64,000 bases of DNA from NCBI GenBank assembly GCA_963766735.1, contig CAVYBU010000003.1, positions 1 to 64,000 of the forward strand. The letters are read 5' to 3'. This DNA comes from an uncultured Chloroflexia bacterium (GTDB lineage: Bacteria; Chloroflexota; Limnocylindria; Limnocylindrales; CSP1-4). Under the pieces are notes generated by a model, which worked only from the letters and a program-made list of their open reading frames with translations, made no database searches and was not told the origin of the DNA. The translations under genes were made by a program, and so were the position numbers. Shown here piece by piece: positions 42,991-59,437 of the stretch (positions are counted from its first letter, which is position 1; each line of letters starts with the position of its first letter).

Positions 42991-44225
42991 CGGATCCCCC
43001 GGACCGCCCGTCGCCGGCGCTTGCCCAGCCCGGATATCGGCGCGAGGCACTGCCGGACCCGGAGGCCGTGGGCGAGGACGAGGTGCTGGTGGCGGCGATA
43101 CGGGCCGAGATCGAGACCGGCGGACCGATCACGTTCGCGCGGTTCATGGAGCGGGCGCTGTACGAGCCGGGACGCGGCTACTACCGTCGGCCCGAGCCGG
43201 GGCCGGGGCGCACGGGCGACTTCCTGACGGCCCCCGAGACACATCCGATCTTCGGCGCGGCGGTCGGCCTGCTGCTCGAGCAGGCCTGGGACGCGATGGG
43301 GCGGCCCCGCCCGTTCGTGGTCACGGAACCGGGCGCAGGGAGCGGCGCGCTGGCGGCCGGGCTGCTGGGCGGTCTGCGTGACCTTCGCTCGCCAATGCTG
43401 GACGCCATCCGGTACCGCCCGGTCGAGGTCGAGGCGGCGCGGGTTGCGGTGTTCCAGGAACGCCTCACCTCCGAGGGCTTCGCCGGGCAGCTGGAGACGG
43501 GCAGTCCCCCAGCGACCCCGCTCGAGTCGGGTGCCGTAGTGGCCAACGAGGTGGTCGACGCGCTTCCGGTGCACCGTGTGGTCGGTCGAGCCGTCGGGAT
43601 CCGGGAGCTGCTGGTCGGCGTTGGAGGGGACGGCGGGTTCGAGACGGTCGAAGCCGAGCCAACGACGCGGGCGCTGGCCGAGCGCCTGGCGACCGAGGGC
43701 GTGACGCTCGCAGACGGGCAGGTTACCGAGGTCTGCCTCGCCACGGACGGGTGGCTGGCGGGCGCGGTCCGTCACCTGGCCAGGGGCATCGTCGTTCTGA
43801 TCGACTACGCCGCTGAACCCGCCACACTCCATGGACCCGACCACCGCACCGGCACCCTGCGGGCCTTCGCGCGGCACGCGGTGGGCGGCGACCCGTTCCG
43901 GCACGTCGGGCGCCAGGACCTGACGGCGACCGTGGACCTCGCCGCCGTCCGGACGGCGGCGGACCGGGCCGGGCTGGACGCCCTGGGCGAGACGACCCAG
44001 GCCGAGTTGCTCGCGGCGGTCGGCAGCGCGGAGCTGACCGGGGCCTGGCTCAGACGGCCGGGCGCGGACCTCCAGGACGTGCTGCTGCTCCGATCCGCGC
44101 TCATGCGGCTCATGGACACGCGTGGCATGGGTGGCTTCCGGGTGCTCGCCTTCGGCCGCGGCCTCCGTCCGGGGACAATGCTGCCCGGGCTGGCGCGGGC
44201 GCTTCGCCCTGGCTCAGGCCGCTGA
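42987..44225 (+). CDS. MidA/NDUFAF7-family SAM-dependent methyltransferase
   Basis: GPITFARFMERALY, GDFLTAPE..FG, EPGAGSG, ANEVVDALPV, IDY, QDLTA.VD. Confidence 0.92.
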   Translation: MTDPPDRPSPALAQPGYRREALPDPEAVGEDEVLVAAIRAEIETGGPITFARFMERALYEPGRGYYRRPEPGPGRTGDFLTAPETHPIFGAAVGLLLEQAWDAMGRPRPFVVTEPGAGSGALAAGLLGGLRDLRSPMLDAIRYRPVEVEAARVAVFQERLTSEGFAGQLETGSPPATPLESGAVVANEVVDALPVHRVVGRAVGIRELLVGVGGDGGFETVEAEPTTRALAERLATEGVTLADGQVTEVCLATDGWLAGAVRHLARGIVVLIDYAAEPATLHGPDHRTGTLRAFARHAVGGDPFRHVGRQDLTATVDLAAVRTAADRAGLDALGETTQAELLAAVGSAELTGAWLRRPGADLQDVLLLRSALMRLMDTRGMGGFRVLAFGRGLRPGTMLPGLARALRPGSGR

Positions 44226-44396
44226 TGCCGTCCGTGCCGGATCGGCCGGGAACTCCCGGGACCAGCCGGGGACCGCACCGGATGCGTACATCGCACGGCC
44301 GAAGCACGCCGCCAACACCGCGCGAAGGGCCGGATGGACGGCGATCCACGCCATGCGGACCGGGCCGTCCGGACCGGGTCCCGGGGTCGGGGCCGC

Positions 44397-44405
44397 TGCT
44401 AGAAT
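44397..44405 (+). promoter_or_regulatory. Extended -10 promoter element of the nuo operon
   Basis: TGcTAGAAT about 105 nt upstream of nuoA. Confidence 0.5.
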
Positions 44406-44511
44406 GGCCTCGCTGCGCTGGAAGATTCGGCGGCGCGGCATGCCCACTGCCATCAAGCGCGAACGCGGGTCGGCCGTCCCCGTACCGGCCCCGCTCGACC
44501 TCGAGGACCAC

Positions 44512-44868
44512 GTGACCGGGATCTGGTACGTCGTCGGGTTTGCCCTCGTCGGAGTCCTGTTCGTGTTCGGCGTGATCGGGCTCGCATGGCTGATCACCCA
44601 TCGCACCCGCGGCGACGTCCACAAGGGCTACCCGTACGAGTCGGGCATCGACACCTACGGCGACACCCACGCCCGGTTCGGCATCTCGTTCTACATCTAC
44701 GCCCTGATGTTCGTCGCCTTCGACATCGAGGTGATCTTCATCTTCCTGTGGGCCCTGGTGTTCCAGGATCTCCTGCTGGGCGGGTTCATCACCATGTTGA
44801 TCTTCGTCGGCATCCTGATGCTCGGCCTCGCGTACGCGTGGCGCAAGGGGGTGTTGTCGTGGCGCTGA
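44512..44868 (+). CDS. nuoA: Complex I subunit A
   Basis: [27 protein letters not shown]. Confidence 0.95.
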
Positions 44869-45608
44869 CCCCGGATGGTCCCGGCGAGCCCGTCATCCCC
44901 GACGCCGCCGCGGCGGACGTGCCCTCCGCCGCGGATGCCAGGTCGGCGCTCGTCGAAGCCTCACCCAGGGACCTGACCCAGCCCATCGTCGTCCCAAACA
45001 CCCTCTGGACCTCGATCCGGTCGGACGCGTACCGCTCCGAGGCGCCGGCATTCACGCACCTGCGCGAGCTTGAGGGGTCGGACCTCGTTCTCTCCGACAC
45101 CGCCCGCTGGGGCCAGCTGGAGGTGATCCCCACCAAGGCCGACCTCGTCGTGGACCTGATCCGGATGAACAGTCTCTGGCCGCTGCTCTCGGGCCTCGCC
45201 TGCTGCGCGATCGAGATGATGTCCGCGGCCACGTCCAAGAACGACATGGACCGCTGGGGCATGTTCCCGTTCCGTGCCTCTCCGCGCCAGGCCGACGTCC
45301 TGATCGTCGCCGGCACCCTGACCACCAAGATGGCCGGCCCGCTCATCCGGCTCTGGGAGCAGATGCCGGAGCCCAAGTGGTGCGTCGCGATGGGCGACTG
45401 CACCTGCTCCGGGGGCCGCTACAAGCGCAGCTACTCCACCATCGAGGGCATCGACCGTGTCATGCCCGTGGACGTCTACGTGCCGGGCTGTCCGCCGCGG
45501 CCGGAAGGCCTGATCTACGGGATGATGAAGCTCGGCCAGCTGGTCAAGGAACAGCGCGGCCACTGGCCCGAGCGCAAGATCGGCCCGAACGTGCCGACGG
45601 ACGTCTAG
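44859..45608 (+). CDS. nuoB: Complex I subunit B
   Basis: [41 protein letters not shown]. Confidence 0.96.
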
Positions 45609-45611
45609 GCG

Positions 45612-46160
45612 ATGGACCGCTCGCTCCGCATCCTGCTCGAGGCCCGCTTTGCGGACAGGCTGACCGGTCCCGTCCGACAGCGCCACGACACCACCGAGAT
45701 CCGGATCCGCCCGGCGGACGTGATCGAGGTACTGCGCACGCTCCACGATGACCCGGATCTGGAGTTCGTCGTCCTCGCGGACCTGTGCGGCGTGGACACC
45801 GGGACGCACATGCAGGTCGTGTACCACCTGTGGTCGATGAAGACGCCGGACTGGCTCCGCATCGTGGCGGACGGCATGCCCCGGGATGACCCGCGCTGTC
45901 CCTCGCTCACCGGCCTGTGGCCCGGCGCCGAGTGGATGGAACGCGAGACGTACGACATGTTCGGGATCATCTTCGAAGGCAACCGGGACCTCCGGCGCAT
46001 CTACATGCCGCCCGACTACACGAGCTTCCCGCTGCGGAAGGACTTCTACCTGGCCGATGACGCCGCCCGCTCCCCGGGTGGCGGCGTGCGCCACATGGAA
46101 CAGACCCAGGCGCCGAACCAGGCGACGCCGGGCGTGCTCCGCCGGACCATGAAGGCCTGA
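45612..46160 (+). CDS. nuoC: Complex I subunit C
   Basis: DLCGVD, W.ERETYDMFGI.F, PLRKDF. Confidence 0.94.
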   Translation: MDRSLRILLEARFADRLTGPVRQRHDTTEIRIRPADVIEVLRTLHDDPDLEFVVLADLCGVDTGTHMQVVYHLWSMKTPDWLRIVADGMPRDDPRCPSLTGLWPGAEWMERETYDMFGIIFEGNRDLRRIYMPPDYTSFPLRKDFYLADDAARSPGGGVRHMEQTQAPNQATPGVLRRTMKA

Positions 46161-46162
46161 CG

Positions 46163-47398
46163 ATGACAACCGCCAAGCCCCACCAGCACCCCTCCCTCGA
46201 TGATCCCCGGATCCTGCTCGACGACCAGATCGGGCAGTTCGAGGCCGTCCCGCCGTACCCGCCGCGCACCGAGCGCGAGGCCGAGTTCTACACCCTCCGC
46301 GACGGCGAGATGTTCGTCAACATGGGGCCGCAGCACCCGTCCACGCACGGCGTGCTCCGCGTCGTGCTCAAGATCAACGGCGAGCGCGTCGTGGACCTGG
46401 ACCCGGTCCTCGGCTACCTCCACCGCGGGGTGGAGAAGCTGTGCGAGAACTCGGACTACCACCACATCATCAGCCAGGTCGATCCGCTGGAGTACGTGAG
46501 CTCGCTGTTCATGGAGTGGTCGCCGGTAATGGCGTTCGAGAAGCTCCTTGACGTCGAGGTCCCGCGCCGCGCCGAGTACATCCGCGTGCTCACCGGGGAG
46601 CTCCTCCGCGTGTCGAGCCACGCGCTGTTCCAGGGCTGGATGGCGCTGGACCTGGGCGGTCTCGCCCCGATCCTGTACAGCTTCATCGAGCGCGACGAGA
46701 TCGTGGAGATGCTGGCTGCGGTCACTGGCCAGCGGATGCTGTTCAACTACTTCCGGATCGGCGGCGTCAACGGGGACCTGAACCACGAGTTCATGTCCCG
46801 CCTCGGCGACTGGATGAGCCGCGCCACCAAGCAGGTCGAGGCGAACATCGGCCTGCTCAACGAGAACGAGATCTTCGTCCGCCGCATGCGCGGCATCGGC
46901 GTCCTGGACGGGGCAACTGCCCTCCGGATGGGCGCCAGCGGCCCCAACCTGCGGGCTTCGGGCGTCGCGTTCGACGTCCGCCGGGCGCACCCGTACTCCA
47001 TCTATCCGGAGCTCGAGTTCGACATCCCGACCCGGGGCGTCGAGCGAGGCGGGGACAGCCTGGACCGCTACCTGCTGCGCCAGGACGAGATCCGTCAGAG
47101 CCTGCGGATCATCGACCAGTGCCTGCACAACATGCCGGACGGTCCGGTCATGGCCCGTCTCCCGCGCCTGCTGCGCCCGCGCCCGGGTCGCGCCTGGGCG
47201 GCGGTCGAGGCTCCGCGCGGGCTGTACGGCACATACGCCATCTCGGATGGCACGGACCAGCCCTTCCGCATGAAGATCCACGACCCGTCATTCGTGCATC
47301 TGCAGCTCGTGGGGCTGCTCATGAAGGACAACCTGATCGCGGACACGATGGCCGTGATGGCGTCCCTGGATCCGGTCATGGGCGGGATCGACAAGTGA
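46163..47398 (+). CDS. nuoD: Complex I subunit D
   Basis: NMGPQHPSTHGVLR, GYLHRGVEK, RIGGV, EAPRG, SLDPVMG; no NiFe CxxC motifs. Confidence 0.95.
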   Translation: MTTAKPHQHPSLDDPRILLDDQIGQFEAVPPYPPRTEREAEFYTLRDGEMFVNMGPQHPSTHGVLRVVLKINGERVVDLDPVLGYLHRGVEKLCENSDYHHIISQVDPLEYVSSLFMEWSPVMAFEKLLDVEVPRRAEYIRVLTGELLRVSSHALFQGWMALDLGGLAPILYSFIERDEIVEMLAAVTGQRMLFNYFRIGGVNGDLNHEFMSRLGDWMSRATKQVEANIGLLNENEIFVRRMRGIGVLDGATALRMGASGPNLRASGVAFDVRRAHPYSIYPELEFDIPTRGVERGGDSLDRYLLRQDEIRQSLRIIDQCLHNMPDGPVMARLPRLLRPRPGRAWAAVEAPRGLYGTYAISDGTDQPFRMKIHDPSFVHLQLVGLLMKDNLIADTMAVMASLDPVMGGIDK

Positions 47399-47462
47399 CG
47401 CCCACCAAACGACGACCGATCCCCGCGCCCGAGCGCGATCGGCGCCGGCTGAGGTTCGTGCG

Positions 47463-48803
47463 ATGACAACGCCCAACCGCACCTGGGGCCACCTCACCCC
47501 CGCCGGGAAGGTGCTGATCCCCCTGCTGTTCCTGCTCCTGGTTGTGGCGCCGGTCCTGACGATCCTGCTGGTCACCATCGTCGTCCCGTGGCTGATCGAC
47601 GTGCTCAACTCGAATCTGGGCATCGTCCGGTTCGTGGTCGCGATCGGCGGGGTCCTGCTGTTCAGCATCCCGGCCGCATTCATCATCATCTACATGGAGC
47701 TGAAGGTCATCGCCTTCATGAACCTCCGGGTCGGGCCCAACCGCATCGGTCCGGGCGGGGCGCTCATGTCGGTGGTCCACGGCCTCAAGGTCCTCACCAA
47801 GGAGGACTTCACTCCCACCGGCGCGGACCGGATCGTGTTCACCTGGGCTCCGGTGATCGTGTTCCTCACCGCGGTGATGACCTTCCTCGTCATCCCGTTC
47901 GGGCCCGGCCTGGTGGGCCAGGACCTCAACATCGGCCTCCTGTACCTGTTCGCTGTCGGCGGCATGTCGGTGATCGGGCTGATGCTCGCCGGCTGGGCCA
48001 GCTTCAACAAGTACTCGCTGCTGGGCGGCCTCCGGGCCGCGGCCCAGATGGTCAGCTACGAGATCCCGCTCACGCTCTCCGTGGTCGGCCTGATCCTGCT
48101 GGCCGGGACCATGAGCCTGAACCAGATCGCGGAGGCCCAGGCCGGCTGGTTCACGGACTGGTACGTCTTCCGCCAGCCGCTGGGTGCCCTCATCTTCTTC
48201 ATCGCCGCCACCGCCGAGGCCAACCGGACGCCGTTCGACATGGCCGAGGCGGACAGCGAGATCGTGGCGGGGTTCGCCACCGAGTATTCGGGGATGCGCT
48301 TCGGCTTCCTGTTCTTCGCCGAGTACGTGAACGTGTTCATCATCTCGGCGCTGATGGTCACGCTGTTCTTCGGCAGCTGGAACGCCCCGTTCCCGTTCCC
48401 GGAGATCACGCTGGCGCTGGACCCGGGCTCGCTGGGCATCGGCCTGCCGATCCTGCTGCTGGCGGTGCCGGTCGTGCTCACCCTGGTGTTTGCCGCGCCG
48501 TTCTACCTCGCCCGGAGCTCCAGGCCGGCCTGGCAGGCCCTGCTCCTCGGCTTCGTGGCGTTCAACCTGGTCGGCTTCGCCGCCCTGGGCCTGCTGGCCT
48601 ACATCGGCTGGCCGTGGCTGGCCGGTCTCGTCTGGTTCATGCTCAAGTCGTTCGGCTTCGTCTACGTGTTCGTGTGGATGCGCGGCACCTTCCCCCGCGT
48701 GCGCATCGACCAGCTGATGGGGTTCGCCTGGAAGTGGCTCCTGCCCGCCGCCCTCCTGAACCTCTTCGTCACGGCCGCAGCCATCATCATCGTGAAGTCG
48801 TGA
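47463..48803 (+). CDS. nuoH: Complex I subunit H
   Basis: R.GPNR, KED, GWASFNKYSLLGGLR, SYE, NRTPFD.AEA, EYSG, PRVRIDQ. Confidence 0.95.
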   Translation: MTTPNRTWGHLTPAGKVLIPLLFLLLVVAPVLTILLVTIVVPWLIDVLNSNLGIVRFVVAIGGVLLFSIPAAFIIIYMELKVIAFMNLRVGPNRIGPGGALMSVVHGLKVLTKEDFTPTGADRIVFTWAPVIVFLTAVMTFLVIPFGPGLVGQDLNIGLLYLFAVGGMSVIGLMLAGWASFNKYSLLGGLRAAAQMVSYEIPLTLSVVGLILLAGTMSLNQIAEAQAGWFTDWYVFRQPLGALIFFIAATAEANRTPFDMAEADSEIVAGFATEYSGMRFGFLFFAEYVNVFIISALMVTLFFGSWNAPFPFPEITLALDPGSLGIGLPILLLAVPVVLTLVFAAPFYLARSSRPAWQALLLGFVAFNLVGFAALGLLAYIGWPWLAGLVWFMLKSFGFVYVFVWMRGTFPRVRIDQLMGFAWKWLLPAALLNLFVTAAAIIIVKS

Positions 48804-48810
48804 GCACCCC

Positions 48811-49476
48811 ATGAGCTTCATCCCCGGCATCGGCCTCGTCCGCGGCATGGGCCTGACCCTGCGCCGGTTCTTCCAGCCCAAGGCAACCATCCAGTGGCCG
48901 GAACAGAAGGCCGACGTCGCTCCCAAGTTCCGCGGTCGTCTCCAGCTGCTGTACGACGAGTACGGCTCGCTCAAGTGCGAGACGTGCTTCCAGTGCGCCC
49001 AGGCCTGCCCGATCGAGTGCATCGACATGGGTGGCATGGACACCAAGGGCCGCTTCCACGTCCACTGGGGCCCGTCCGAGACGTACTCCGAGCGGCGAGA
49101 GGAGTCCGCACTCCGCCGGTCCGGCCGCCCGGTGGCAGACCCGGCGTTCGCCAGCTTCGAGGCCCTGGACGTCGCCGCCGTGGACGAGATCCTCGAGGCC
49201 CACGACTACGACCCCGGAGACCTGCTGGCGATCCTCGAGGAGACGCAGGCGGCCTACGGGTATCTCCCTGTCGCGGCGCTCAAGCACATCTCGCGGATCA
49301 CCGGGGCGTGGTACGCCACGATCTACGGCGCCGCCACCTCGTACCGCCACCTCCGGTTCGAGCCGCCTGCGGTCGCTTCGGCCGCGCCGGCGGGCGAGGG
49401 CCAGCGGGTGCAGGAGGCCGGCTACCGCTCCGCGCTGGACGCGGCGCTGGGCTACGGCGGGGAGCGCCCGAACTGA
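48811..49476 (+). CDS. nuoI: Fusion of NuoI N-half (one CxxCxxCxxxCP) and the NuoE N-terminal helical domain
   Basis: GMGLTLRRFF..ATIQWPE..FRG..KCETCFQCAQACP, then LLAILEETQAAYGYLP..IYGAATSY; no second ferredoxin motif and no 2Fe-2S Cys. Confidence 0.9.
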   Translation: MSFIPGIGLVRGMGLTLRRFFQPKATIQWPEQKADVAPKFRGRLQLLYDEYGSLKCETCFQCAQACPIECIDMGGMDTKGRFHVHWGPSETYSERREESALRRSGRPVADPAFASFEALDVAAVDEILEAHDYDPGDLLAILEETQAAYGYLPVAALKHISRITGAWYATIYGAATSYRHLRFEPPAVASAAPAGEGQRVQEAGYRSALDAALGYGGERPN

Positions 49477-50834
49477 TGAGCACCTTCCTCACGGTCCCCA
49501 AGGATTGGCCGCTCGTCATCACCGGACGCGCAGGGGCCATCGCAGCGGATCCCGCGGACCTGGACGCGGCCGTCGCCGCGGGCGCGTTCGAGGCGCTCCG
49601 CGTGGTCGTCCGTGACCTGGGCGCTACCGGCACCATCGCCACGATCGCCGCCTCGGGCCTGCGCGGACGCGGCGGCGCGGGCCTCCCCACCGGTGAGAAG
49701 TGGCGCGCCGCAGCCGCGCACGAGGCGGACCAGCGCTACGTGGTCGCCAACGCCTACGACGCGGACCCGGGTGTCCAGATCGGAAGCGCGCTGCTGGCGG
49801 CAGACCCCTGGGTCGTCATCGAGGGCCTCGTGATCGCCGCGTTCACCGCCGGTGCCACGGAGGCGATCCTCGCCCTCCGGGCGGATGACACGGCCCTGGT
49901 CACGATGCTCGAGGGCGCCGTCCTCGCGGCGGGGGAGGCCGGGTTCCTCGGCGACGACGTCATGGGCTCCGGCCACCGCGTCACCGTCACGGTCAGGCCG
50001 GTGCAGGGCGCCTACATGCTGGGCGAGGAGACCGTCCTGCTCAGGGCTCTCGAGGGCAAGCGAGGCCAGCCCGAGCAGCAGCCGCCGTATCCCACCGAAC
50101 GCGGCCTGTGGGACAAGCCCACCGTCGTCAACAACGTCCAGACCCTGGCCGCCGTGCCCTGGATCATCCGCGAGGGCGCGGACCGCTTCGCCGCGATCGG
50201 CGGCGGGAACGGCCAGACAGGCGGGACATCCACCGGAACCGCCCTGGTCCAGCTCCGCGGTCCCGAGGGTGCGGGCATCGCCGAGGTGCCCCTGGGCACG
50301 TCTCTGCGGACCCTGGTGGATCTCGCGGGCGGCAGCGGCACACGACCGCTCAAGGCGCTCCTGGTCGGCGGGCCCACCGGAGGCATCCTGCCCGCGGACC
50401 TCCTGGACACCCCGTACGACTTCGACCCGCTCCGCGATGCCGGCGCCCACATCGGATCCGGTTCCGTGGTGATCGCGGACGAGCGGGCGTGCGTCGTGGA
50501 TCTCGCCCGGCTCCTCACCCGCTTCGCCGCCGACCAGGCGTGCGGCAAGACGATCCCCTGCCGGATCGGCCTGCGCCGTCTCTCGGAGATCGGCGACCGC
50601 ATCGCCGAGGGCCATCCCCGGCCGACGGATCCGGCGCTCATCGGGGACCTCGCCCACGACATCGCGGCGAGCGCCCTGTGCGACCACGAGCGCCTTGCCG
50701 TCCTGCCGCTCACCAGCGTGATGCGATACTTCCGTCCCGAGATCGACGACCACCTCCTCCGCTCCACCTGTCCCGCCGGCGTCTGCGCGCCGATTGCGGT
50801 GGCGGCGGGCGCAGCGACACCAGGACCCCGCTGA
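49476..50834 (+). CDS. nuoF: NuoF/HydB-like flavoprotein subunit, degenerate
   Basis: SGLRGRGGAG, GEET, PTVVNNV, GGPTGG, CGKTIPCR, CPAGVC. Confidence 0.88.
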   Translation: MSTFLTVPKDWPLVITGRAGAIAADPADLDAAVAAGAFEALRVVVRDLGATGTIATIAASGLRGRGGAGLPTGEKWRAAAAHEADQRYVVANAYDADPGVQIGSALLAADPWVVIEGLVIAAFTAGATEAILALRADDTALVTMLEGAVLAAGEAGFLGDDVMGSGHRVTVTVRPVQGAYMLGEETVLLRALEGKRGQPEQQPPYPTERGLWDKPTVVNNVQTLAAVPWIIREGADRFAAIGGGNGQTGGTSTGTALVQLRGPEGAGIAEVPLGTSLRTLVDLAGGSGTRPLKALLVGGPTGGILPADLLDTPYDFDPLRDAGAHIGSGSVVIADERACVVDLARLLTRFAADQACGKTIPCRIGLRRLSEIGDRIAEGHPRPTDPALIGDLAHDIAASALCDHERLAVLPLTSVMRYFRPEIDDHLLRSTCPAGVCAPIAVAAGAATPGPR

Positions 50835-53491
50835 TGGCCGACCTCATCGTGCGCCCCGACAGCCCCGTCCAGAGCCGGGTCGAGTCACGCCCGGACACGC
50901 CCGCAGTCCTCGACACGGTCACGGCGCGGGATGACTCCCTCGCCGAGCGGCTGATCACCACCCAGTCACCGCAGCGCCCGCAGAGCACGCCACGTATCCG
51001 CCTGGAGGTGGACGGGCGCCTGATCGAGGGCTTCGAAGGCCAGACGATCCTCGAGGTCTGCCGCGACAACGGGATCGAGATCCCCACCCTCTGCTACGAA
51101 CCCAAGCTGCCGGGCTTCGGCGCCTGCCGGATGTGCGTGGTCGAGGTGGAGGGCGAGGACGCCCCGCCGATCTCCTGCTCGCGCGAGGCCGAGGCGGACA
51201 TGGTTGTCCGCACCCAGACGGACGAGTTGCGCCGGATCCGGCGGACCAACCTCGAGTTGATCTTCTCGGACCACAACGCGTACTGCCTGCCGCCGTGCCA
51301 GAACAAGTGCCCCAGCCACATCGACATCCCGGGCTTCCTGAAGGCCAACGCGGAGGCCAACTGGACCGAGTCCGTGCGCACCTTCAAGCGCACGATCCCG
51401 TTCCCCAGCATCCTGGGACGCGTCTGCCCCGCCCCCTGCGAGGAGCACTGCCGACGGGACGAGGTGGACGAGGCGATCGCCATCCGGGACAGCCACCGCT
51501 ACGCCGGCGACCAGGTCCTGCGGGCCATGCTTGACGAGGGCATCGACCCACCGCTCCCGTTCGAGAAGCAGGCCCCATCCGGGCGCCGGGCGGCTGTCAT
51601 CGGCTCGGGACCGGCCGGCATGAGCGCAGCGTTCTACCTGCTGCTGGCCGGCCACGACGTGACGATCTTCGAGCGGGACCCCGCACCCGGCGGCATGCTC
51701 CGGTACGGCATCCCGCAGTACCGGCTGCCCAAGGTCGAGGTCCTCGAGGCCGAGTACGAGTCGGTGACCCGCCTGGGCGGCAGGATGGTCTGCAACCAGG
51801 AGCTGGGCAGGGACTTCACGCTGGACGACCTGCAGAACCAGGGCTTCGATGCCGTCCTGGTTGCCATCGGCTGCTACGACACCAACAAGCTCGGCATCCC
51901 CGACGAGGACGCCGACGGCGTCATCGACGGCCTCGACTACCTGCGCACGGCCACGCTGGGCCTGGAGTACCCGGGCCACGCCGCCGCGCGCATCGTGGTC
52001 GTGGGCGGCGGCTTCTCCGCGATGGACTGCGTCCGCACCTCCGTCCGCCAGGGCTCGAAGGACGTCACGCTCGTCTACCGCCGCGACATGAAGGACATGC
52101 CGGCCGCCTCCGAGGTCCACGAGGCCATCGAGGAGGGTGTCACCACCATCTTCCAGGCCGGTCCCACGCGTGTCGTCAAGGACGCGAACACGGGCAAGGT
52201 CACCGGCATCGAGTTCATCCGCATGAAGCTCGGTGAGCCCGACGCGTCAGGGCGGCGACGCCCGGAGCCCGCTCCCGATACCGAGTTCATCATCCCCTGC
52301 GACCGCGTGCTGCTGGCCATCGGCCAGGGCCCGGACCTGCGCTGGTTCGGCGCCGGCAACGACGGCGTCACCGCGAACCGCCAGCGCCGCCTCAAGGCCG
52401 ACGCCGTCACGTTCGAGACGGACCGGCCCGGCGTGTTCGCAGCCGGAGACGTCCGGATCGGCGCCGCGACGGTCGTCCAGGCCATCGCCGAGGGCCGCCG
52501 CTCCGCCTACGCCGTGGACGCATACCTGCGCGGCAACGACCTGGCCGCCATCCGGACCCGGCAGACACTCGCCGAGCCGCAACCCGAGTTCCTCTCGATC
52601 GTGCCGTTCACCGGCGAGGTCAAGGAACCGCGCTACCGCCTCCGGGCCCTGGAGCCCGAGGCCCGCAGCGACAGCTACCTCGAGTACGAGATCCCGTACA
52701 CCCGGGACGAGGCCGTCGCGGAGTCCACCCGCTGCCTCCAGTGCACCTGCGAGGCGATCGGCTTCTGCGACCTGCGCCGGCTGGGCATCGAGTACGGCAC
52801 CACCCTGAAGACGCTCGAGAAGGGCTTCCACCAGGGTGCCGGATACCGCTCCGTCACCGAGAACCGGTTCACGGGGCTGAACCACGACTACGTCCGGGAC
52901 GACAGCCACGCGTTCATCCTGCGGGAGCCCGCCCGGTGCATCGACTGCGGCCGCTGCGCCAACGTCTGCGCCGAGGTGGTCGGCGCTGCCTGCTACGACT
53001 TCATGCGGATCGGCTTCGACACCCTGGTGACCACGCCGCTCGACATGAGCCTCAACGACACGCCGTGCGTGTCCTGCGGCCGCTGCGCGGAGACGTGCCC
53101 GACGGGGGCGCTGATGCCCAAGCCCCGGATCCTGCAGAAGTACGAGGTCGACGAGAGCCGCTGCATCCTGTGCGGCATCTGCGTCGACGCCTGCCCCTAC
53201 GACGCCGTCCGCGACAGCGACCAGTTCGAGCTCAGCCACACGTCCCGCGAGGAGCCGTCCATCGATCTCCTCGCGCTGGCCGCGGTCGAGCGCGAGACGG
53301 AGATGAGCTACATCCGCCGCGAGCGCGACTGGGCGGAGCGAGCCCGGGCCGAGGGACGCGTCCTCGACCGGTCCCGGCTCCTGCCCGTGCTCCCCGCCTC
53401 ACTCGCCAATGGGAACGGGAACGGGAACGGGCACCAGGATGCGCCCGCGAACGACCCGGCCAAGTCCATCAACGCTGAGAGGGACGCGTGA
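50834..53491 (+). CDS. Fusion of NuoG-type Fe-S domains, a GltD/SfrB-like FAD-NADPH oxidoreductase and the NuoI C-half
   Basis: GACRMC 2Fe-2S; PPCQNKCP, GRVCPAPCE; GSGPAG; GGGFSAMD..YRR; CIDCGRC, CVSCGRCAETCP; YEVDESRCILCGICVDACP..FEL. Confidence 0.92.
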   Translation: MADLIVRPDSPVQSRVESRPDTPAVLDTVTARDDSLAERLITTQSPQRPQSTPRIRLEVDGRLIEGFEGQTILEVCRDNGIEIPTLCYEPKLPGFGACRMCVVEVEGEDAPPISCSREAEADMVVRTQTDELRRIRRTNLELIFSDHNAYCLPPCQNKCPSHIDIPGFLKANAEANWTESVRTFKRTIPFPSILGRVCPAPCEEHCRRDEVDEAIAIRDSHRYAGDQVLRAMLDEGIDPPLPFEKQAPSGRRAAVIGSGPAGMSAAFYLLLAGHDVTIFERDPAPGGMLRYGIPQYRLPKVEVLEAEYESVTRLGGRMVCNQELGRDFTLDDLQNQGFDAVLVAIGCYDTNKLGIPDEDADGVIDGLDYLRTATLGLEYPGHAAARIVVVGGGFSAMDCVRTSVRQGSKDVTLVYRRDMKDMPAASEVHEAIEEGVTTIFQAGPTRVVKDANTGKVTGIEFIRMKLGEPDASGRRRPEPAPDTEFIIPCDRVLLAIGQGPDLRWFGAGNDGVTANRQRRLKADAVTFETDRPGVFAAGDVRIGAATVVQAIAEGRRSAYAVDAYLRGNDLAAIRTRQTLAEPQPEFLSIVPFTGEVKEPRYRLRALEPEARSDSYLEYEIPYTRDEAVAESTRCLQCTCEAIGFCDLRRLGIEYGTTLKTLEKGFHQGAGYRSVTENRFTGLNHDYVRDDSHAFILREPARCIDCGRCANVCAEVVGAACYDFMRIGFDTLVTTPLDMSLNDTPCVSCGRCAETCPTGALMPKPRILQKYEVDESRCILCGICVDACPYDAVRDSDQFELSHTSREEPSIDLLALAAVERETEMSYIRRERDWAERARAEGRVLDRSRLLPVLPASLANGNGNGNGHQDAPANDPAKSINAERDA

Positions 53492-54024
53492 CGCTGCCGG
53501 AGACGATCCCGCTGCTCGGGTTCGGGTGGGATGACCTGCTGTTCATGATTCTGGCCGGGATCATGGTCGGGTCGGCGCTGCTGGTCGTGACCATGAAGGA
53601 CATCATCCGCTGCGGCCTGGCGATGATCGTGTGCTTCGCGGCACTCGCGGGGCTGTACGTGTTCGCGGGCGCACCACTGGTCGCCGGTGCCCAGGTGCTG
53701 GTCTACATCGGTGCCATCAGCGTCCTTGTCCTGTTCGCGATCATGCTGACCCAGACGAAGGCCGGTCCCGCAGCGCTCGTGTTCCAGACGCAGGCCATCC
53801 CGGCCGCGATCGCGGCCGTGGTGCTGGCGCTGCTGATCGCCGTCTCAGTTGCGTCCACCGACTGGCCGGAGGCCGGCGCCCGGATCTGGACGGACACGAC
53901 CGCGATGGCGACGACGCTGTTCGCGGACTTCACGCTCCCGTTCGAGGTCGTGAGCGTGCTGCTCCTGGCCGCGGTCGTCGGTGCCGTGTACATCGCCAGG
54001 CGCGAGCCGGGAGGGAGCGACTGA
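53488..54024 (+). CDS. nuoJ: Complex I subunit J
   Basis: QVLVYIGAISVL.LFAIML, PFEVVSVLLL. Confidence 0.95.
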   Translation: MTLPETIPLLGFGWDDLLFMILAGIMVGSALLVVTMKDIIRCGLAMIVCFAALAGLYVFAGAPLVAGAQVLVYIGAISVLVLFAIMLTQTKAGPAALVFQTQAIPAAIAAVVLALLIAVSVASTDWPEAGARIWTDTTAMATTLFADFTLPFEVVSVLLLAAVVGAVYIARREPGGSD

Positions 54025-54356
54025 TGTTCTCCTTCCTCGACAACGTCTCGCAGAGCCTGGACGCCTACCTGGTCCTGGCCGGCCTGCTGTTCGCCATCGG
54101 CGCGTTCGGCTTCCTGGCCCGCCGGAACGCGATCAGCATGCTGATGTCCATCGAGCTGATGCTCAACGCGGTGAACCTCTCGATCATCGCGTTCGGGGCA
54201 TTCACCACCTCGCTGCGCGAGAGCGCCTCCGTGATCGCGCTGATCGTCATTGCGGCCGCGGCGGCCGAGGCGACGATCGGCCTGGCGATCGTGATCGCGA
54301 TCTACCGCAACCGGAAGACGCCGCTCGTCGACGAGTACGACGCGATGCGGCAGTAG
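54024..54356 (+). CDS. nuoK: Complex I subunit K
   Basis: RRNAISMLMSIELMLNA, AAAEA.IGLAI. Confidence 0.95.
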   Translation: MFSFLDNVSQSLDAYLVLAGLLFAIGAFGFLARRNAISMLMSIELMLNAVNLSIIAFGAFTTSLRESASVIALIVIAAAAAEATIGLAIVIAIYRNRKTPLVDEYDAMRQ

Positions 54357-54368
54357 GCGGCGATCACG

Positions 54369-56419
54369 ATGTACCCCCTCCTGAACACCTTGTTCGCCTC
54401 CGAGGGAGAGGCCGTCGTCACCGGAGCGGTGGATCCGGGGATCTACCCCCTGCTGATCGCGCTGATCCCGTTGCTGCCTATCCTCGGCTTCGCCTTCACC
54501 GCCCTGTTCGGGCGCCGGCTGCAGGCGAAGGGGGGCGGACCGCCGCCGAGATCGTGCCGGTGGGCATCGTCATCGCGGTCTGGGTGATCGCGATGATGGT
54601 CATCGTCCCGGCGCTGACCCACGCGGAGCCCTTCGGCGAGCACGGCCTGGACGTCACGCTCTGGACGTGGATCCCCGCCGGGGACTTCGTGGTGAACATG
54701 GGATTCCACGTGGATGCCCTGACCGCGGCGCTCCTGATCGTCGTCACGACCATCGGCATGCTCGTGCACATCTACTCGATCGGGTACATGGCGCACGACC
54801 CGGGCACGTGGCGGTTCTTCGCCTACCTCAACCTGTTCATGTTCTCGATGCTCGTGCTCGTGCTGGCGGACAACTGGGTGCTGGTGTTCGCGGGCTGGGA
54901 GCTGGTGGGCCTGTCCTCGTACTCGCTGATCGGGTTCTGGTACCCGAAGCGGTCCGCGGCGCTGGCCGCCAAGAAGGCGTTCATCGTGAACCGCGTCGGC
55001 GACGTGGGCTTCGCGCTCGGGATCATGGCGATCTGGGTCAATACCGGGACGCTGAACATCCAGGAATTGCTTGCCAGGCTGATCGAGATGCCGGCCGCAG
55101 AGCTGACGATCCCGCTCGTGGTCGTCGCGCTGCTCGTGTTCGCAGGCGCGATGGGCAAGAGCGCCCAGTTCCCGCTGCACGTCTGGCTCCCGGACGCGAT
55201 GGAGGGCCCGACCCCGGTCTCCGCCCTGATCCACGCTGCCACCATGGTCAACGCCGGCGTCTACCTCGTCGCGCGCGCCAACCCGCTGTTCGCGCACGCG
55301 CAGGAAGCGATGGTCGTCGTTGCGGCGATCGGCATCTTCACCGCCATCCTCGCGGCGTCGATCGCGTTCACCCAGACCGACATCAAGCGCGTGCTCGCGT
55401 ACTCCACCCTCTCGCAGCTGGGCTACATGTTCGCCGCGCTGGGCGTGGGCGCCTACGTCGCGGCCATCTTCCACCTCATGACCCACGGCTTCTTCAAGGG
55501 CCTCCTGTTCCTCGGGTCGGGCTCGGTCATCCACGCGGTGGACGGCGAGCAGGACATGAACCGGATGGGAAGGCTGTGGCGGAAGATCCCGATCACGCAC
55601 TGGACGATGCTCGTGGGCACGATCGCGATCGCGGGCATCCCGCCGCTCGCGGGCTTCTTCTCCAAGGACGAGATCCTGGGCGAGGCGTTCAAGTTCGGGT
55701 TCTACTGGGTCTGGGGTATCGGCCTGGTGGTCGCGGCGATGACCGCGTTCTACATGTGGCGCCTGATGGGCAAGACGTTCTACGGCGAGTCCCACGTGGA
55801 CCCGAGCGTGGAGCCCAAGGTCCACGAGTCGCCGTGGACCATGACCCTGCCGCTCGTCCTGCTCGCGATCCCGGCCGCGTTGCTGGGCATCGCCCTGGGC
55901 ACGCCGCTCGGTGCCTCGACCCTCAAGGGCTGGCTGGAGCCGGTCTTCGTCGAGTCCGAGGAGTACCTCTACGGCGAGCCGCACGCGTACGAGCTGTTCG
56001 GCATCGACGGGTACCTGATCCTGGCCAGCGTCGCCGTGGCAACCCTCGGCCTGATCCTCGGGATCTGGCTGTTCGGCGCCTTCAAGCGCCGGGGCAAGCC
56101 GGAGCGCGTCCGGCAGCTGACCAACGCGAACGGCGCGACGCGGTTCCTCTACCGCGCGACGCTCAACAAGTGGTGGTTCGACGAGCTCAACGACCTGCTG
56201 TTCATCCGCATCGGCGGGCGCATCGCCGCCGCCATGTGGTGGTTCGACCGATCCATCGTGGACGGTGCCGTCAACGGCGTCGGCAGCGTGACCCGCGGCG
56301 CGGGCGGCGGGCTGCGTCAGATCCAGACGGGGCGTGTCCAGAACTACGCGCTGGGCATCGCGATCGGGTTGATCGTGATGGCGGCCTCGTTCCTCCTGAT
56401 CGTGGGGCAGCCCCGATGA
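54369..56419 (+). CDS. nuoL: Complex I subunit L (1-nt frameshift in the G-run at ~54530-54535, likely a sequencing error)
   Basis: N-terminus LIPLLPILGF in one frame continues as RTAAEIVP..YSIGYM, GWELVG, GKSAQFPL, EGPTPVSALIHAATMV, QTGRVQNY. Confidence 0.93.
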
Positions 56420-57963
56420 TCGACCTCTCCGGGCTGCACCTGGTGACCCTGGTCACCTTCCTGCCCCTGCTGGGCGCTCTCGTGATCGCGTTCACGCCGA
56501 CCAGCCGGCCGAACGTCGCGCGCTACACCGCGCTCGGTTTCGCCCTCCTCGCGTGGGTCGCCTCGCTCGCGCTGCTGGTCGCCTTCGTGGCCGGTGCGGA
56601 TGGCTTCCAGTTCGTCGACCAGGTCGACTGGATCCCGATGTTCGGCATCCAGTACAAGGTGGGCGTGGACGGGCTCTCGCTCGTGCTCGTGGTCCTCACC
56701 ACGACCCTCACCTGGATCAGCATCCTCGCCTCCTTCGGCCCGATCCAGAACCGGGTGAAGGAGTACATGATCTCGTTCCTCGTCCTCGAGGTGGGGATGA
56801 CGGGCGTGTTCGTTGCGATGGACCTGTTCCTGTTCTACATCTTCTGGGAGCTGGTCCTCGTCCCGATGTACCTGATCATCGGGATCTGGGGCGGCAAGAA
56901 CCGCATCTACGCCACCATCAAGTTCGTCCTCTACACCCTGGTCGGGTCGCTGCTGATGCTGGTCGCGATCCTGGCCGCCGCCTTCACCTACCAGACCACC
57001 AACGGGTGGGCAGGGGCGTTCGACGTCGGGAAGCTCACCGAGTTCGCGGCCGCCGGCAACTTCGACGGCACCTTCGGCTTCTTCGCGTTCGCGGCATTCG
57101 CGCTCGCCTTTGCGATCAAGGTCCCGATGTTCCCGTTCCACACCTGGCTCCCGGACGCCCACGTGGAGGCGCCCACGGCGGGCTCCGTCATCCTGGCCGG
57201 CGTCCTGCTGAAGCTGGGTGGCTACGGGTTCATCCGGTTCGCGATCCCGCTGTTCCCGGAGGCGGCGCAGACCTGGGCCCCGCTGATCATCGTGATGAGC
57301 CTGATCGCGATCATCTACGGCGCGATCGTCGCCCTGGTCCAGCCAGACCTCAAGAAGCTGGTCGCCTATTCGTCGGTCAGCCACATGGGCTTCGTGACCC
57401 TGGGCATCTTCGTGTTCCAGGAACAGGGCATGCAGGGGGCCATCCTCCAGATGGTCAACCACGGGCTCATCACCGGCGCACTCTTCCTCCTCGTGGGCGT
57501 GATCTACGAGCGCACCCACGATCGGACGATCGCCAAGATGGGCGGGCTGGGGTCGAAGACCCCTGTGTACGCCGCCGCGTTCGGGTTCTTCGTCTTCGCC
57601 TCGGTCGGCCTGCCGGGCCTGTCCGGGTTCGTGGGCGAGTTCCTGGTCCTGGTCGGAACGTTCGCCTTCAACCCCGCCGCCGCCGCGATCGCGACCTTCG
57701 TGATGATCCTTGCCGCCGGGTACCTGCTCTGGATGTTCCAGCGAGTGGCCTTCGGCGAGCTGTCGGGGTTCCTCAAGGGTCTCGGCGACCACCTCACCGA
57801 CCTCCGCCCTGTCGAGGCACTCACGCTTGTGCCGCTGGGCGCGCTGGTCGTGGTGTTCGGCCTCTTCCCGGGCCTGCTCCTGGACCTGATCGCCGGTTCC
57901 GTGACGAACGCACTCGCCGCGGTGCAACAGGCTGCACCCATCGCCCTCGGCCTGTGGCGGTAG
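56416..57963 (+). CDS. nuoM: Complex I subunit M
   Basis: GVDGLS, FWE..LVPM, KVPMFPFHTWLPDAHVEAPT, LVAYSSVSHMG, FVGEF. Confidence 0.96.
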   Translation: MIDLSGLHLVTLVTFLPLLGALVIAFTPTSRPNVARYTALGFALLAWVASLALLVAFVAGADGFQFVDQVDWIPMFGIQYKVGVDGLSLVLVVLTTTLTWISILASFGPIQNRVKEYMISFLVLEVGMTGVFVAMDLFLFYIFWELVLVPMYLIIGIWGGKNRIYATIKFVLYTLVGSLLMLVAILAAAFTYQTTNGWAGAFDVGKLTEFAAAGNFDGTFGFFAFAAFALAFAIKVPMFPFHTWLPDAHVEAPTAGSVILAGVLLKLGGYGFIRFAIPLFPEAAQTWAPLIIVMSLIAIIYGAIVALVQPDLKKLVAYSSVSHMGFVTLGIFVFQEQGMQGAILQMVNHGLITGALFLLVGVIYERTHDRTIAKMGGLGSKTPVYAAAFGFFVFASVGLPGLSGFVGEFLVLVGTFAFNPAAAAIATFVMILAAGYLLWMFQRVAFGELSGFLKGLGDHLTDLRPVEALTLVPLGALVVVFGLFPGLLLDLIAGSVTNALAAVQQAAPIALGLWR

Positions 57964-57973
57964 GAGGACACCC

Positions 57974-59437
57974 GTGATCTTCTCCGACGCCGTCACGCTG
58001 GCGCCGTTCATCGCCGCGGTGCTGCTGGCAGCCGCGATCATCGTCGTCGACTTCATCGTGCCCGGCCGCAAGGTCCCGGTGCTCGCGGTGACGTTTGTCG
58101 GCCTTGCGCTCGTCGCCGGGCTGATCGTCCTCACGGGCCAGACCGGATCCACGGCCTTCAACGGCTCCTACGTGGTGGACCCGCTGACCACGTTCCTGGA
58201 CGTGCTGTTCGTGGCGATCGTCGCGCTGAGCGTCGCGTTCGCGCCGGACTACATGGAGGAGCGCGGCCTGCCGGTGGCCGAGTTCAGCGCGATCCTCGTG
58301 TTCGCGATGTCGGGCGCCATGCTCCTTGCCGGGTCGGCGGACCTGCTGCTGCTGTTCCTGGGCCTGGAGCTCATGGTCCTGCCCGGGTACATCCTGGCCG
58401 GCTACCACAAGTCGGACGGCTTCTCGACCGAGGGCGCGATCAAGTACTTCCTGCTCGGGTCCTTCTCCTCCGCCATCTTCCTGTTCGGGCTCGCGTTCGT
58501 GTGGGGCATGACCGGCACCACCCGGATCGATGGCGTGGCGCAATCCCTGGCCGCGCTCGTGAGCGGCACCGCGGCGCTCTCGCCGGGCCTGGCCCTTGGC
58601 CTCGCGTTCATGACCACGGGCGTGGCATTCAAGATCGCCGCCGTCCCGTTCCACTACTGGACGCCGGATGCGTACCAGGGCTCCCCGACCCCGGTCACCG
58701 GCTATCTGTCGGTCGGGCCGAAGATCGGGGCGTTCGCACTGATCATCCGGCTCTTCGGCGAAGCGCTCGGTCCCCTCGCGCTGGACTGGAACATCGTGAT
58801 CATGGTGCTGGCGGCCCTGACGATGACCCTTGGCAACCTGGTCGCGCTGACCCAGGACAACGTCAAGCGGATGCTCGCGTACTCCTCGATCGCACACACC
58901 GGCTACATGCTGGTCGGGTTCGCGGCGTTCGCGGCCGGTGAGATCCAGGGCCTCGAGGGGCTGCTCTTCTACAGCGCCGCGTACGCGTTCATGAACCTGG
59001 GCGCATTCGCCGTGATCGCGGCCCTCCAGAAGCGCCGTGCGGTGACCAGCAACCTGTCCACCTTCGCGGGCCTCATCCGCCGTGAGCCGGTCCTGGCGTT
59101 GATGATGACCCTGTTCATGCTGTCCCTCACGGGCATCCCGCCCACGGCCGGGTTCTTCGGCAAGTTCTACGTGATCCTCTCGGCGGTCCAGGCCGGTGGG
59201 TGGCTGACCGCCCTCGCGATCCTTGCGGTGCTCAACGCGGCGGTGGCGGCGTTCTACTACCTGCGCGTCGTGGTCTACATGTTCATGCGGGAACCGGAGG
59301 GCGAGATCCCGGTGATGCCGCACGGGCGCCTCGTCTGGGCCGGACTGGTGGTGGCAACGGTGTTGACGGTGGCGCTGGGCCTGTTCCCCAACGCCCTGCT
59401 GGACATCGTCGAGGGCGCGGCCGCGGCGATCGGCTAG
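57974..59437 (+). CDS. nuoN: Complex I subunit N
   Basis: EGAIKYFLLG, FKIAAVPFH.W.PDAYQGSPT, KRMLAYSSIAH, GIPPTAGFFGK. Confidence 0.96.
   Translation: MIFSDAVTLAPFIAAVLLAAAIIVVDFIVPGRKVPVLAVTFVGLALVAGLIVLTGQTGSTAFNGSYVVDPLTTFLDVLFVAIVALSVAFAPDYMEERGLPVAEFSAILVFAMSGAMLLAGSADLLLLFLGLELMVLPGYILAGYHKSDGFSTEGAIKYFLLGSFSSAIFLFGLAFVWGMTGTTRIDGVAQSLAALVSGTAALSPGLALGLAFMTTGVAFKIAAVPFHYWTPDAYQGSPTPVTGYLSVGPKIGAFALIIRLFGEALGPLALDWNIVIMVLAALTMTLGNLVALTQDNVKRMLAYSSIAHTGYMLVGFAAFAAGEIQGLEGLLFYSAAYAFMNLGAFAVIAALQKRRAVTSNLSTFAGLIRREPVLALMMTLFMLSLTGIPPTAGFFGKFYVILSAVQAGGWLTALAILAVLNAAVAAFYYLRVVVYMFMREPEGEIPVMPHGRLVWAGLVVATVLTVALGLFPNALLDIVEGAAAAIG

Follow-up and report, generated by a model that had tools for sequence, protein, structure and literature searches.

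An NfnABC-like module between the halves of a split NuoI in a Chloroflexota complex I, and the possible entry of electrons from NADPH

The window analysed in this work is a stretch of 64,000 nucleotides of DNA (G000:C3:1-64000; ~70% G+C) from a Chloroflexota genome of 3.6 Mb that is rated 94% complete, and whose closest relatives in the genome collection carry titles that are mostly Candidatus Limnocylindrales or Chloroflexota. It hosts an operon for respiratory complex I in which, by Pfam and NCBIfam, nuoA, B, C, D and H, three unusual genes, and nuoJ, K, L, M and N all lie in one orientation; the full set of these nuo genes is present at the locus. Stop and start codons overlap across the three unusual genes, whose products we call NuoI-N::E', F' and G'::NuoI-C (Table 1). 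As read from the sequence, an NfnC-NfnB-NfnA-like trio sits here between the two halves of nuoI and is fused to both. We hold with moderate confidence that this complex I variant would be an NADPH:menaquinone proton pump, which would draw its electrons mainly from NADPH, and not from NADH as is usual, and would oxidise it at the flavin adenine dinucleotide (FAD) of G'. A tblastn search found no further copy of nuoA, B, C, D, H, J or K in the genome, which is 94% complete as stated, and G'::NuoI-C is thus encoded in the operon of the sole complex I found in it.

The domains of G'::NuoI-C follow one another in an unusual order. Pfam recognizes Fer2_4 (residues 54-129, E 1e-20), Fer4_20 (151-228), Pyr_redox_2 (253-554, E 5e-32), Fer4_Nqo3 (695-760) and Fer4 (770-792), with a weak match to NADH-G_4Fe-4S_3 at 136-152, i.e. 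the SDH...C151 half. Among these lie the motifs SDH (145-147), GSGPAG (257-262), GGGFSAMD and YRR (Table 1) and RCLQCTC..FCDL (633-647). A first-pass annotation of this DNA had proposed just such a nested layout, in which a 2Fe-2S domain, SDH, a GltD-like unit, RCLQCTC..FCDL and two 4Fe-4S motifs succeed each other. Every one of these elements was found, by Pfam and by alignments in one continuous piece to NfnA of Caldicellulosiruptor (9BOV_A, residues 55-787, E 7e-157) and StnC of Sporomusa (8OH5_C, residues 54-789, E 4e-140); NfnA of Thermococcus (9N5U_A) aligns in two pieces. The annotation's statement that molybdopterin and H-cluster domains are missing also holds, as neither family is among the best 25 of the 33 Pfam families matched. 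The common automatic label for this protein, 'formate dehydrogenase major subunit', can be ruled out for want of a molybdopterin domain. The same three chains (9BOV_A, 8OH5_C and 9N5U_A) are the top three Foldseek matches of an AlphaFold single-chain model, and the FAD domain superposes on 5JCA_L with a template modelling score of 0.80 and a root mean square deviation of 2.6 Å. The model is good over the 2Fe-2S and GltD parts; its predicted local distance difference test (pLDDT) is below 50 over residues 638-828, and no distances were taken from it.

When compared with a canonical NuoG of a related genome, G'::NuoI-C matches at residues 55-155 and then at 695-760, and so ~500 residues are inserted between the two. 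The insert is a circularly permuted GltD/NfnL domain: residues 153-567 match NfnL from NfnL residue 72 on, and residues 600-637, which end in RCLQC, align to residues 32-69 of the NfnL-like protein encoded in the same genome (E 0.002). RCLQC (C634 and C637) is thus most likely the permuted N-terminal motif of the GltD/NfnL domain, completing the GltD cluster, and going by their spacing C639 and C645 alone would complete the N5-like set with H147 and C151. This divides the claim, made from the first inspection, that the whole of RCLQCTC..FCDL completes the N5-like set: it would stand for the latter pair of cysteines and most likely fails for the former.

The predicted clusters can be named after those of the solved enzymes. 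A7 of G' maps onto NfnA as C159, C198, C202 and H221 (PMC11829005). For A6 we propose C155, C206, C634 and C637, and for the N5-like A3 cluster the spacing points to H147, C151, C639 and C645. Each of the 25 predicted ligand positions is retained in no fewer than 105 of 109 homologues, with gaps in truncated rows and one substitution accounting for the rest. At the A7 site all 109 homologues have His221, whereas 110 of 115 long StnC-like representatives have Lys; Lys170 of StnC is described as a strictly conserved A7/C7 ligand (PMC10482914). The features of a GltD/NfnL domain are complete, namely a GxGxxG FAD loop, GGGxxAxD with YRR (position 396 being Ser, Ala or Thr) and the Arg equal to StnC R239. 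The NADP(H)-type motif of the second Rossmann fold is also found in 9BOV_A, 8OH5_C and 9N5U_A. In the source genome the pattern GGGxx[AS]xD...YRR occurs in just 5 of 5006 six-frame open reading frames of at least 300 residues, and the remaining four sit in or at loci matched by tblastn with G'::NuoI-C.

The tail of G' (residues 762-845) matches the second half of NuoI (8QBY_I 93-144, E 1e-12). Five polyferredoxin chains outrank NuoI here on summed repeats, and the NuoI assignment therefore rests also on gene context. The head of NuoI-N::E' corresponds to NuoI residues 3-76 (hhalign 98.6%). A single-chain NuoI with two CxxCxxCxxxCP motifs is absent; one motif is found in NuoI-N::E' and one at the end of G'. 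The first-pass annotation had rightly seen a NuoI C-half in place of a molybdopterin or H-cluster domain, and overlooked that the N-half is on a separate polypeptide. In ferredoxin folds with two [4Fe-4S] clusters, two such motifs cross-ligate both clusters, so N6a and N6b would each need both polypeptides.

The rest of NuoI-N::E' matches the N-terminal domain of NfnC/StnA and has no 2Fe-2S domain; the four 2Fe-2S cysteines, searched for with a pattern of our own, occur in none of 77 E' sequences. The E' proteins form a series of decay (L040, L045 and L075 compared with window positions 48811-49476), in which forms of ~280 residues retain a degenerate thioredoxin-like domain that forms of ~225 residues, including the window copy, have lost. 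F' resembles HydB, NfnB and StnB (E 1e-98 to 1e-95) more closely than it does NuoF (1e-69 or weaker). Its flavin-site Asp is replaced by Tyr94 and the second N3/B1 cysteine by Thr359, and the C/H/C/C Zn site is kept, although the Zn-site tail is missing in 17 of 84 members of the order. The three genes thus match the three Nfn-Bfu subunits in order (C-B-A), which upholds the earlier suggestion of a StnABC-like origin; the loss of the bifurcating parts of the flavin mononucleotide (FMN) subunit had escaped notice. A canonical NuoEFG module for NADH is not found, with TIGR01959 at 315 bits (below 559) and TIGR01973 at 89 bits (below 470).

Table 1. Genes of the variant operon and motifs of G'::NuoI-C, in window coordinates
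Feature	Position	Strand	Basis and remarks
nuoA, nuoB, nuoC, nuoD, nuoH (upstream)	44122..48803	+	Pfam/NCBIfam; limits are those of the open reading frames
NuoI-N::E', 221 residues	48811..49476	+	NuoI N-half (C56, C59, C62, C66) and N-terminal helical domain of an NfnC/StnA-type subunit
F', 452 residues	49476..50834	+	BfuB/NfnB-type FMN subunit, trimmed of its thioredoxin and ferredoxin domains
G'::NuoI-C, 885 residues	50834..53491	+	StnC/NfnA-type subunit; NuoI C-half in place of the FdhF-like domain
NuoG/BfuA 2Fe-2S domain, A1/N1b-like (C87, C98, C101, C115)	50993..51220	+	Fer2_4; ligands in 106/109, remainder gaps
His-Cys3 (N5/A3-like) motif, first half (S145-D146-H147...C151)	51266..51286	+	Kept in 82/82
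Circularly permuted GltD/NfnL domain, FAD site GSGPAG, conserved R297 (= StnC R239)	51287..52744	+	Alignments
Second Rossmann fold, GGGFSAMD (391-398) and YRR (415-417), NADP(H)-type site	52004..52084	+	GGG, D398 and YRR in 109/109
N5/A3-like motif, second half (C639, C645)	52748..52774	+	109/109; putative ligands, from spacing
Two 4Fe-4S motifs (C702/705/708/712, C745/748/751/755)	52916..53113	+	Fer4_Nqo3; A2/N4-like junction and A4 branch cluster
NuoI C-half (C777, C780, C783, C787), directly behind the A4 motif	53132..53278	+	In relatives, TIGR01971 positions ~69-112
nuoJ, K, L, M, N (downstream)	53488..59437	+	nuoJ start overlaps the G'::NuoI-C stop

With the solved StnABC/NfnABC enzymes (8OH5 of S. 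ovata, 9BOV of C. saccharolyticus and 9N5U of T. sibiricus) the window module shares the nested layout of the A subunit over ~730 residues, the three-gene C-B-A order, a BfuB-type FMN subunit with Zn-site ligands, the YRR motif and R297 (= R239). Unlike them, it has NuoI-C instead of the FdhF-like domain and cluster A5, with the alignment ending near residue 787, and His rather than Lys170 as A7 ligand. Its F' has lost the thioredoxin and ferredoxin domains, the AFM motif and D195, its BfuC-type subunit has lost the 2Fe-2S cluster site and is fused to NuoI-N, and its genes lie in a membrane nuo operon, in organisms that have a COX1 oxidase. An intact BfuBC core (thioredoxin domain, B1, B3/B4 ferredoxin domain, AFM and the C1 2Fe-2S) is not present in the window and is found in relatives of the L161 type. 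StnABC uses NADPH to reduce NAD+ and ferredoxin in a coupled reaction; the window sequence has no ferredoxin branch. Canonical complex I (Thermus 2FUG/4HEA and E. coli 7AWT) likewise has co-oriented NuoA, B, C, D, H, J, K, L, M and N, and its N1b, N4 and N5 are homologous to A1, A2 and A3 of the window. The window differs from it in having NuoI on two polypeptides, an FAD protein in place of NuoG, a NuoE without 2Fe-2S and a degenerate NuoF, as well as a predicted exit at A4 rather than N5 and NADPH as predicted donor.

The flavoproteins of the NfnL/GltD/SfrB type (5JCA_L, 4YLF_B and 6S6S) share the fold of the FAD domain and GGGxxAxD with YRR; in the window this domain is instead circularly permuted and nested in BfuA. 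Geobacter SfrAB presumably has a GltD-type make-up as well. It is described as a separate putative NADPH dehydrogenase (PMC2825233) and is not fused to NuoI. A further close system is Nuo-Bfu, a predicted complex that confurcates NADH and ferredoxin with intact BfuBC, reported from Deferribacteres, Proteobacteria, Planctomycetes and Nitrospirae (Schut et al. 2022, PMC9304861). There too BfuABC-type genes replace nuoEFG in the middle of a nuo cluster, menaquinone is the acceptor and the same argument for a more reducing donor is made. In the window, by contrast, BfuBC is stripped, and a bifurcation-competent BfuBC with six clusters is lacking, while sediment relatives have it intact. The available part of the Nuo-Bfu description (PMC9304861) mentions neither an NADP(H) domain nor a split NuoI, and the window has both. 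The locus encodes a conserved complex I variant, which would work like an NfnA grafted on a proton pump and lies outside both Stn/Nfn-Bfu and Nuo-Bfu as defined.

The arrangement is widespread. An orthologue of G'::NuoI-C, whole or in pieces cut by contig ends, occurs in 39 of 41 relatives, including genomes of 1.0-1.4 Mb; the two without it are 68% and 72% complete. The order A-B-C-D-H-[I-N::E']-F'-[G'::I-C]-J-K-L-M-N is kept in 80/80 loci (L021-L100) as far as the contigs reach. An assembly artefact as the source of the layout is ruled out by this recurrence and by its presence in other lineages. Among the 151 genomes of the class that are at least 90% complete, 150 have a match to the NuoI family and just three an intact NuoI above the cut-off; the unpublished genomes G503, G468 and G483 are included and are not among the three. 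A query across the G'/NuoI-C junction, run on 401 genomes, gave any match in 114. It matched 47/47 sampled genomes of the class, and outside it 28/30 of family f24, 9/11 of f28, 5/5 of f9 and one genome each of f19 and f46. Metatranscriptome contigs from four runs span the operon at an identity of at least 88%; as they come from mixed organisms they are not used as evidence of expression.

Families f24, f28, f9 and f46 have the module as a stand-alone cassette, nuoB-[I-N::E']-F'-[G'::I-C], and 4/4 genomes tested, from two other Chloroflexota families, hold a canonical complex I as well. Where the region of a second nuoD was fetched (three genomes), it proved to be a nuoA-C-D-H cluster without nuoB and nuoI, and the missing nuoB and nuoI are exactly what the cassette supplies. 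This exact complementarity argues strongly, on genetic grounds, for incorporation of the module into a complex I. Together with the gene fusion it bears out the earlier suggestion that the module was recruited to complex I. The second NuoD of f24 and f28 genomes shares a gap with the NuoD of the window (46163-47398), which is of a short type with two Pfam segments, is close to FpoD and has PRK12322 as best NCBIfam match. Two f24 genomes host two tandem copies of G'::NuoI-C (L104:6306-11347 and L116:6422-11491), with one L104 copy frameshifted. In two loci of family f4 (L110 and L111) the cassette is nuoB-nuoD-[I-N::E']-F'-G', with no nuoA, C or H or membrane genes nearby; in the tree their G' proteins group with those of f24, f28 and f9 and not with the rest of the class, hinting that this cassette was acquired by transfer.

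How might such a complex work? NADPH would be oxidized at the FAD of G' and its electrons would pass through the predicted iron-sulfur chain to the quinone site of the pump, along the path NADPH > FAD > A7 > A6 > A3(N5) > A2(N4) > A4 > N6a > N6b > N2 > menaquinone. The two halves of NuoI would assemble, N6a and N6b each being ligated by two polypeptides, and so staple the module to NuoB and NuoD. In canonical complex I, N5, the counterpart of A3, faces NuoI and passes electrons there from NuoG. Here A3 would already be joined to A6, as it is in the solved Nfn-Bfu enzymes, and the exit would therefore shift to the otherwise unused A4 branch of the Y. In the solved Nfn-Bfu enzymes electrons are described as running along FAD-A7-A6-A3-A2-A1-B1, with A2 the centre of the Y and the third branch unused (PMC12018979, PMC10482914). 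The point of fusion is exactly that branch: NuoI-C begins ~12 residues past the last A4 ligand and its first cysteine lies 22 residues past. Against this path stands that the A4-to-N6a step would fall within the region where the model is unreliable (pLDDT <50). F' would no longer bifurcate, and may be at most a minor door for NADH or a scaffold; NADH would reach the pump partly through PntAB.

The energetics offer a reason for the swap of input. With cellular potentials from PMC10482914 (NADPH about -370 mV) and menaquinone at -74 mV (PMC9304861), an electron pair yields ~590 meV from NADPH and ~410 meV from NADH, or 3.9 versus 2.7 protons at 150 mV. The energy from NADPH is thus close to the cost of four protons at that voltage.

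Some evidence on the origin of the variant comes from the metagenomes. A distant representative, P0137, led to 76 loci, and those of at least 9 kb have the same gene order. In most of them F is a complete BfuB (NADEGDPGAFM and four B1 cysteines), its two C-terminal ferredoxin motifs are present in 39 of 42 such loci, with two more fused to G', and E keeps the 2Fe-2S ligands in the examples inspected. Loci L134-L208 from sediment and freshwater (e.g. L161:7224-12674) hold a complete NfnABC inside the split nuoI of a full nuo operon, and are candidates for a three-donor, bifurcating complex I. At one such locus the NuoH falls in a cluster with a protein that carries the label Actinomycetota. A tree built on the 700 residues that the proteins share places 24/24 NuoI-fused sequences together, separated by a branch from 47 StnC-like ones (8 picked, 39 random), with a Shimodaira–Hasegawa-like approximate likelihood ratio (SH-aLRT) support of 98; this was a quick search with SH-aLRT only, midpoint rooting and no approximately unbiased test. 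The NuoI-fused rows were P0137, P0268 and 22 of 34 aligned family rows, and one row was dropped for short coverage. A single origin is compatible with this tree, and the simplest history would be one insertion of a whole NfnABC into nuoI, followed by loss of the bifurcating parts in Chloroflexota.

Taken together, these points outline a fuller proposal, which we put forward tentatively and with somewhat less than even confidence: a widespread and undescribed class of complex I that would be a dedicated NADPH:quinone pump, derived from a single insertion of NfnABC into nuoI, with the ancestral three-donor form (NADPH, NADH and ferredoxin) intact in sediment bacteria labelled Actinomycetota and stripped to the door for NADPH in Chloroflexota, with N6a and N6b shared across polypeptides and with A4 instead of N5 as the exit.

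The loci with intact BfuBC bear on the role of the NADP(H) site as well. YRR is lost in 7 of 42 of them, and four of these seven have GES instead of GEE in F, a change seen in none of the 35 that carry YRR. HydB of T. kivui also has GES, and is reported to reduce NADP+ and not NAD+ (PMC8578170). This hand-over is a hint that selection keeps an NADP(H) site, although the loci are kin and three of the seven do not fit. One sub-lineage (L134, L135, L136, L144 and P0137) has a G' without the NADPH motif and an F with GES and a GKHIRT loop, which suggests that NADP(H) specificity has moved to the FMN site there. P0268 (1049 residues) is a G'::NuoI-C without YRR that continues into a domain read by eye as the beta type of 2-oxoacid:ferredoxin oxidoreductases, possibly giving a direct input from 2-oxoacids.

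That NADPH enters at the FAD site is, on present sequence data, the most likely reading; the first-pass annotation had overlooked that a door for NADH may survive beside it. GGG, D398, YRR and R476 of G' are present in 109/109 Chloroflexota homologues and R297 in 82/82; its counterpart in StnC, R239, is reported to be essential. F', on the other hand, has lost the AFM motif, none of 103 sequences has the Asp equal to NfnB D195, and the second N3 cysteine is absent from 89/89 members of families f1-f3 (roles of these residues in PMC12018979). Over 53 loci, identity to the window is 78.8% for G', 76.5% for NuoD and 59.5% for F', G' being above F' in 53/53. In a pair of genomes with both systems, the canonical subunits are 75% (NuoF) and 61% (NuoG) identical, against 53% for F' and 78% for G'. 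F' drifts faster than G', opposite to what canonical complex I shows, and constraint has shifted from F to G'.

A number of observations weigh against this reading. YRR is present in 114 of 115 long StnC-like relatives; it is therefore partly inherited, and its conservation alone does not prove selection for NADPH. F' keeps GLRGRGG, Lys75, Asp97, GEE and Thr223 almost invariantly, and GEE, whose Glu selects NADH in NfnB (PMC11829005, PMC12018979), is present in 103/103. All four N3 cysteines are retained in 14/14 more distant members. Outright loss of FMN from F' is not accepted, as too many pocket residues are kept. A protein query matched no type II NADH dehydrogenase (NDH-2) in the source genome and none in 9 streamlined genomes of the Limnocylindrus family (f2); across the order it matched 52 of 101 genomes and not the other 49. 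This query replaced PF22366, a poor NDH-2 probe that recovered 3/14 controls. Where no NDH-2 is found, NADH must leave via F' or via PntAB. Menaquinone may not be the general acceptor either: MenB is present in the source genome and was not found in two streamlined genomes (G025 and G028, 91-93% complete), and PF02621 of the futalosine route was not found in 5/5 genomes, these two included.

Much of this would suit a complex with two doors, which we regard as the main rival reading, possible though rather doubtful. NADH would be oxidized at a functional FMN in F' (via a three-cysteine N3, A1 and A2) and NADPH at the FAD, the routes joining at A2, and the arm could then double as a non-bifurcating transhydrogenase that carries electrons from NADPH to NAD+. 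F' is indeed kept in every operon, even in the genomes of 1.0-1.4 Mb, along with its GEE, Lys75 and glycine loop (roles in PMC11829005, PMC12018979), and the A1 ligands of G' are invariant even though A1 is off the path from NADPH to quinone. The lack of NDH-2 matches in the source and f2 genomes points the same way. Yet the flavin-site Asp is replaced in all 103 F' sequences, one N3 cysteine is lost throughout f1-f3, the 2Fe-2S of E' is gone and F' changes far more quickly than the canonical NuoF that these genomes also have. Moreover, PntB, found in 5/5 genomes tested, can move NADH to NADPH, and the variant is kept even beside a canonical complex I for NADH.

The first-pass annotation had also offered reverse flow. 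Proton-motive force would then drive electrons from quinol to NADP+ and supply NADPH for biosynthesis. As a main role we find this improbable. The chemistry of complex I is reversible, and genomes with a second, canonical complex I could divide the labour into forward NADH and reverse NADP+ reactions. In most genomes of the class, though, the variant is the sole complex I, and glucose-6-phosphate dehydrogenase and a COX1-type oxidase, like PntB, were each found in 5/5 genomes tested, so that cheaper sources of NADPH exist and a forward pump is needed. PF00180 does not discriminate between NADP- and NAD-linked enzymes.

Marginally less probable still is that the FAD site is the entry for NADH or another donor, with YRR a mere inheritance. 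YRR is near universal in the parent family, the change from Lys170 to His in all members implies that the site was retuned, and about half of the order has no NDH-2 match. However, no acidic residue ends the Rossmann strand, YRR and the RRR at 474-476 are kept in 108-109 of 109 homologues across lineages only 45% identical, and the three closest solved relatives all use NADPH (PMC10482914, PMC11829005, PMC12018979). That the module is a soluble Stn-like enzyme merely located in a nuo operon, as its four genes standing apart from the membrane-arm genes in several families and the short, ferredoxin-like NuoI-C match might suggest, is very improbable given the in-frame fusion of both NuoI halves to its ends, the lack of intact NuoI in 148/151 genomes of the class, the nuoB in the cassette with a complementary nuoA-C-D-H cluster that lacks exactly nuoB and nuoI, and the loss of the tetramer-forming FdhF domain (PMC10482914).

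If NADPH does feed the pump, it would be a main respiratory fuel in nearly all 151 sampled genomes of a class abundant in soil and freshwater, streamlined cells of 1 Mb included. The usual division of NADH for energy and NADPH for biosynthesis would be inverted, with PntAB feeding the pump. The known swaps of complex I input are to ferredoxin, F420 or, as a prediction, NADH with ferredoxin; we found no natural complex I with NADPH entry in print, and no split NuoI or NADPH-linked complex I in the titles or starts of abstracts searched, subscription journals lying outside the search. A core subunit cut between interleaved cluster motifs, together with a new exit route, would reveal how much rewiring the peripheral arm tolerates. 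The series that leads from an intact NfnABC to a stripped module is a natural experiment on the requirements of Bfu bifurcation, and in engineered cells an NADPH pump would help to burn off surplus NADPH. The reading is testable in Thermogemmatispora carboxidivorans, a cultured species, as G' of locus L101 is identical to the public record WP_052888283.1 of that name. For an isolate related to it, the available text lists only 'nuo, ndh, sdh' (PMC6776052).

Some minor observations concern the rest of the genome and operon. An NfnS/NfnL-like gene pair lies elsewhere in the genome (C4:117200-119540; L130:9179-11544), as do three more GltD-like flavoproteins (loci on C3, C27 and C30/C4), a NuoEF/G-like cluster near a molybdopterin-type gene (C8) and a NuoF-like gene (C21), all these functions being read from sequence. 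Finally, nuoL has a one-base frameshift in a G-rich run at 54529-54545 of the window. Contigs from three of four DNA runs have an extra base at 54529-54535, and the frameshift is most likely an assembly error.

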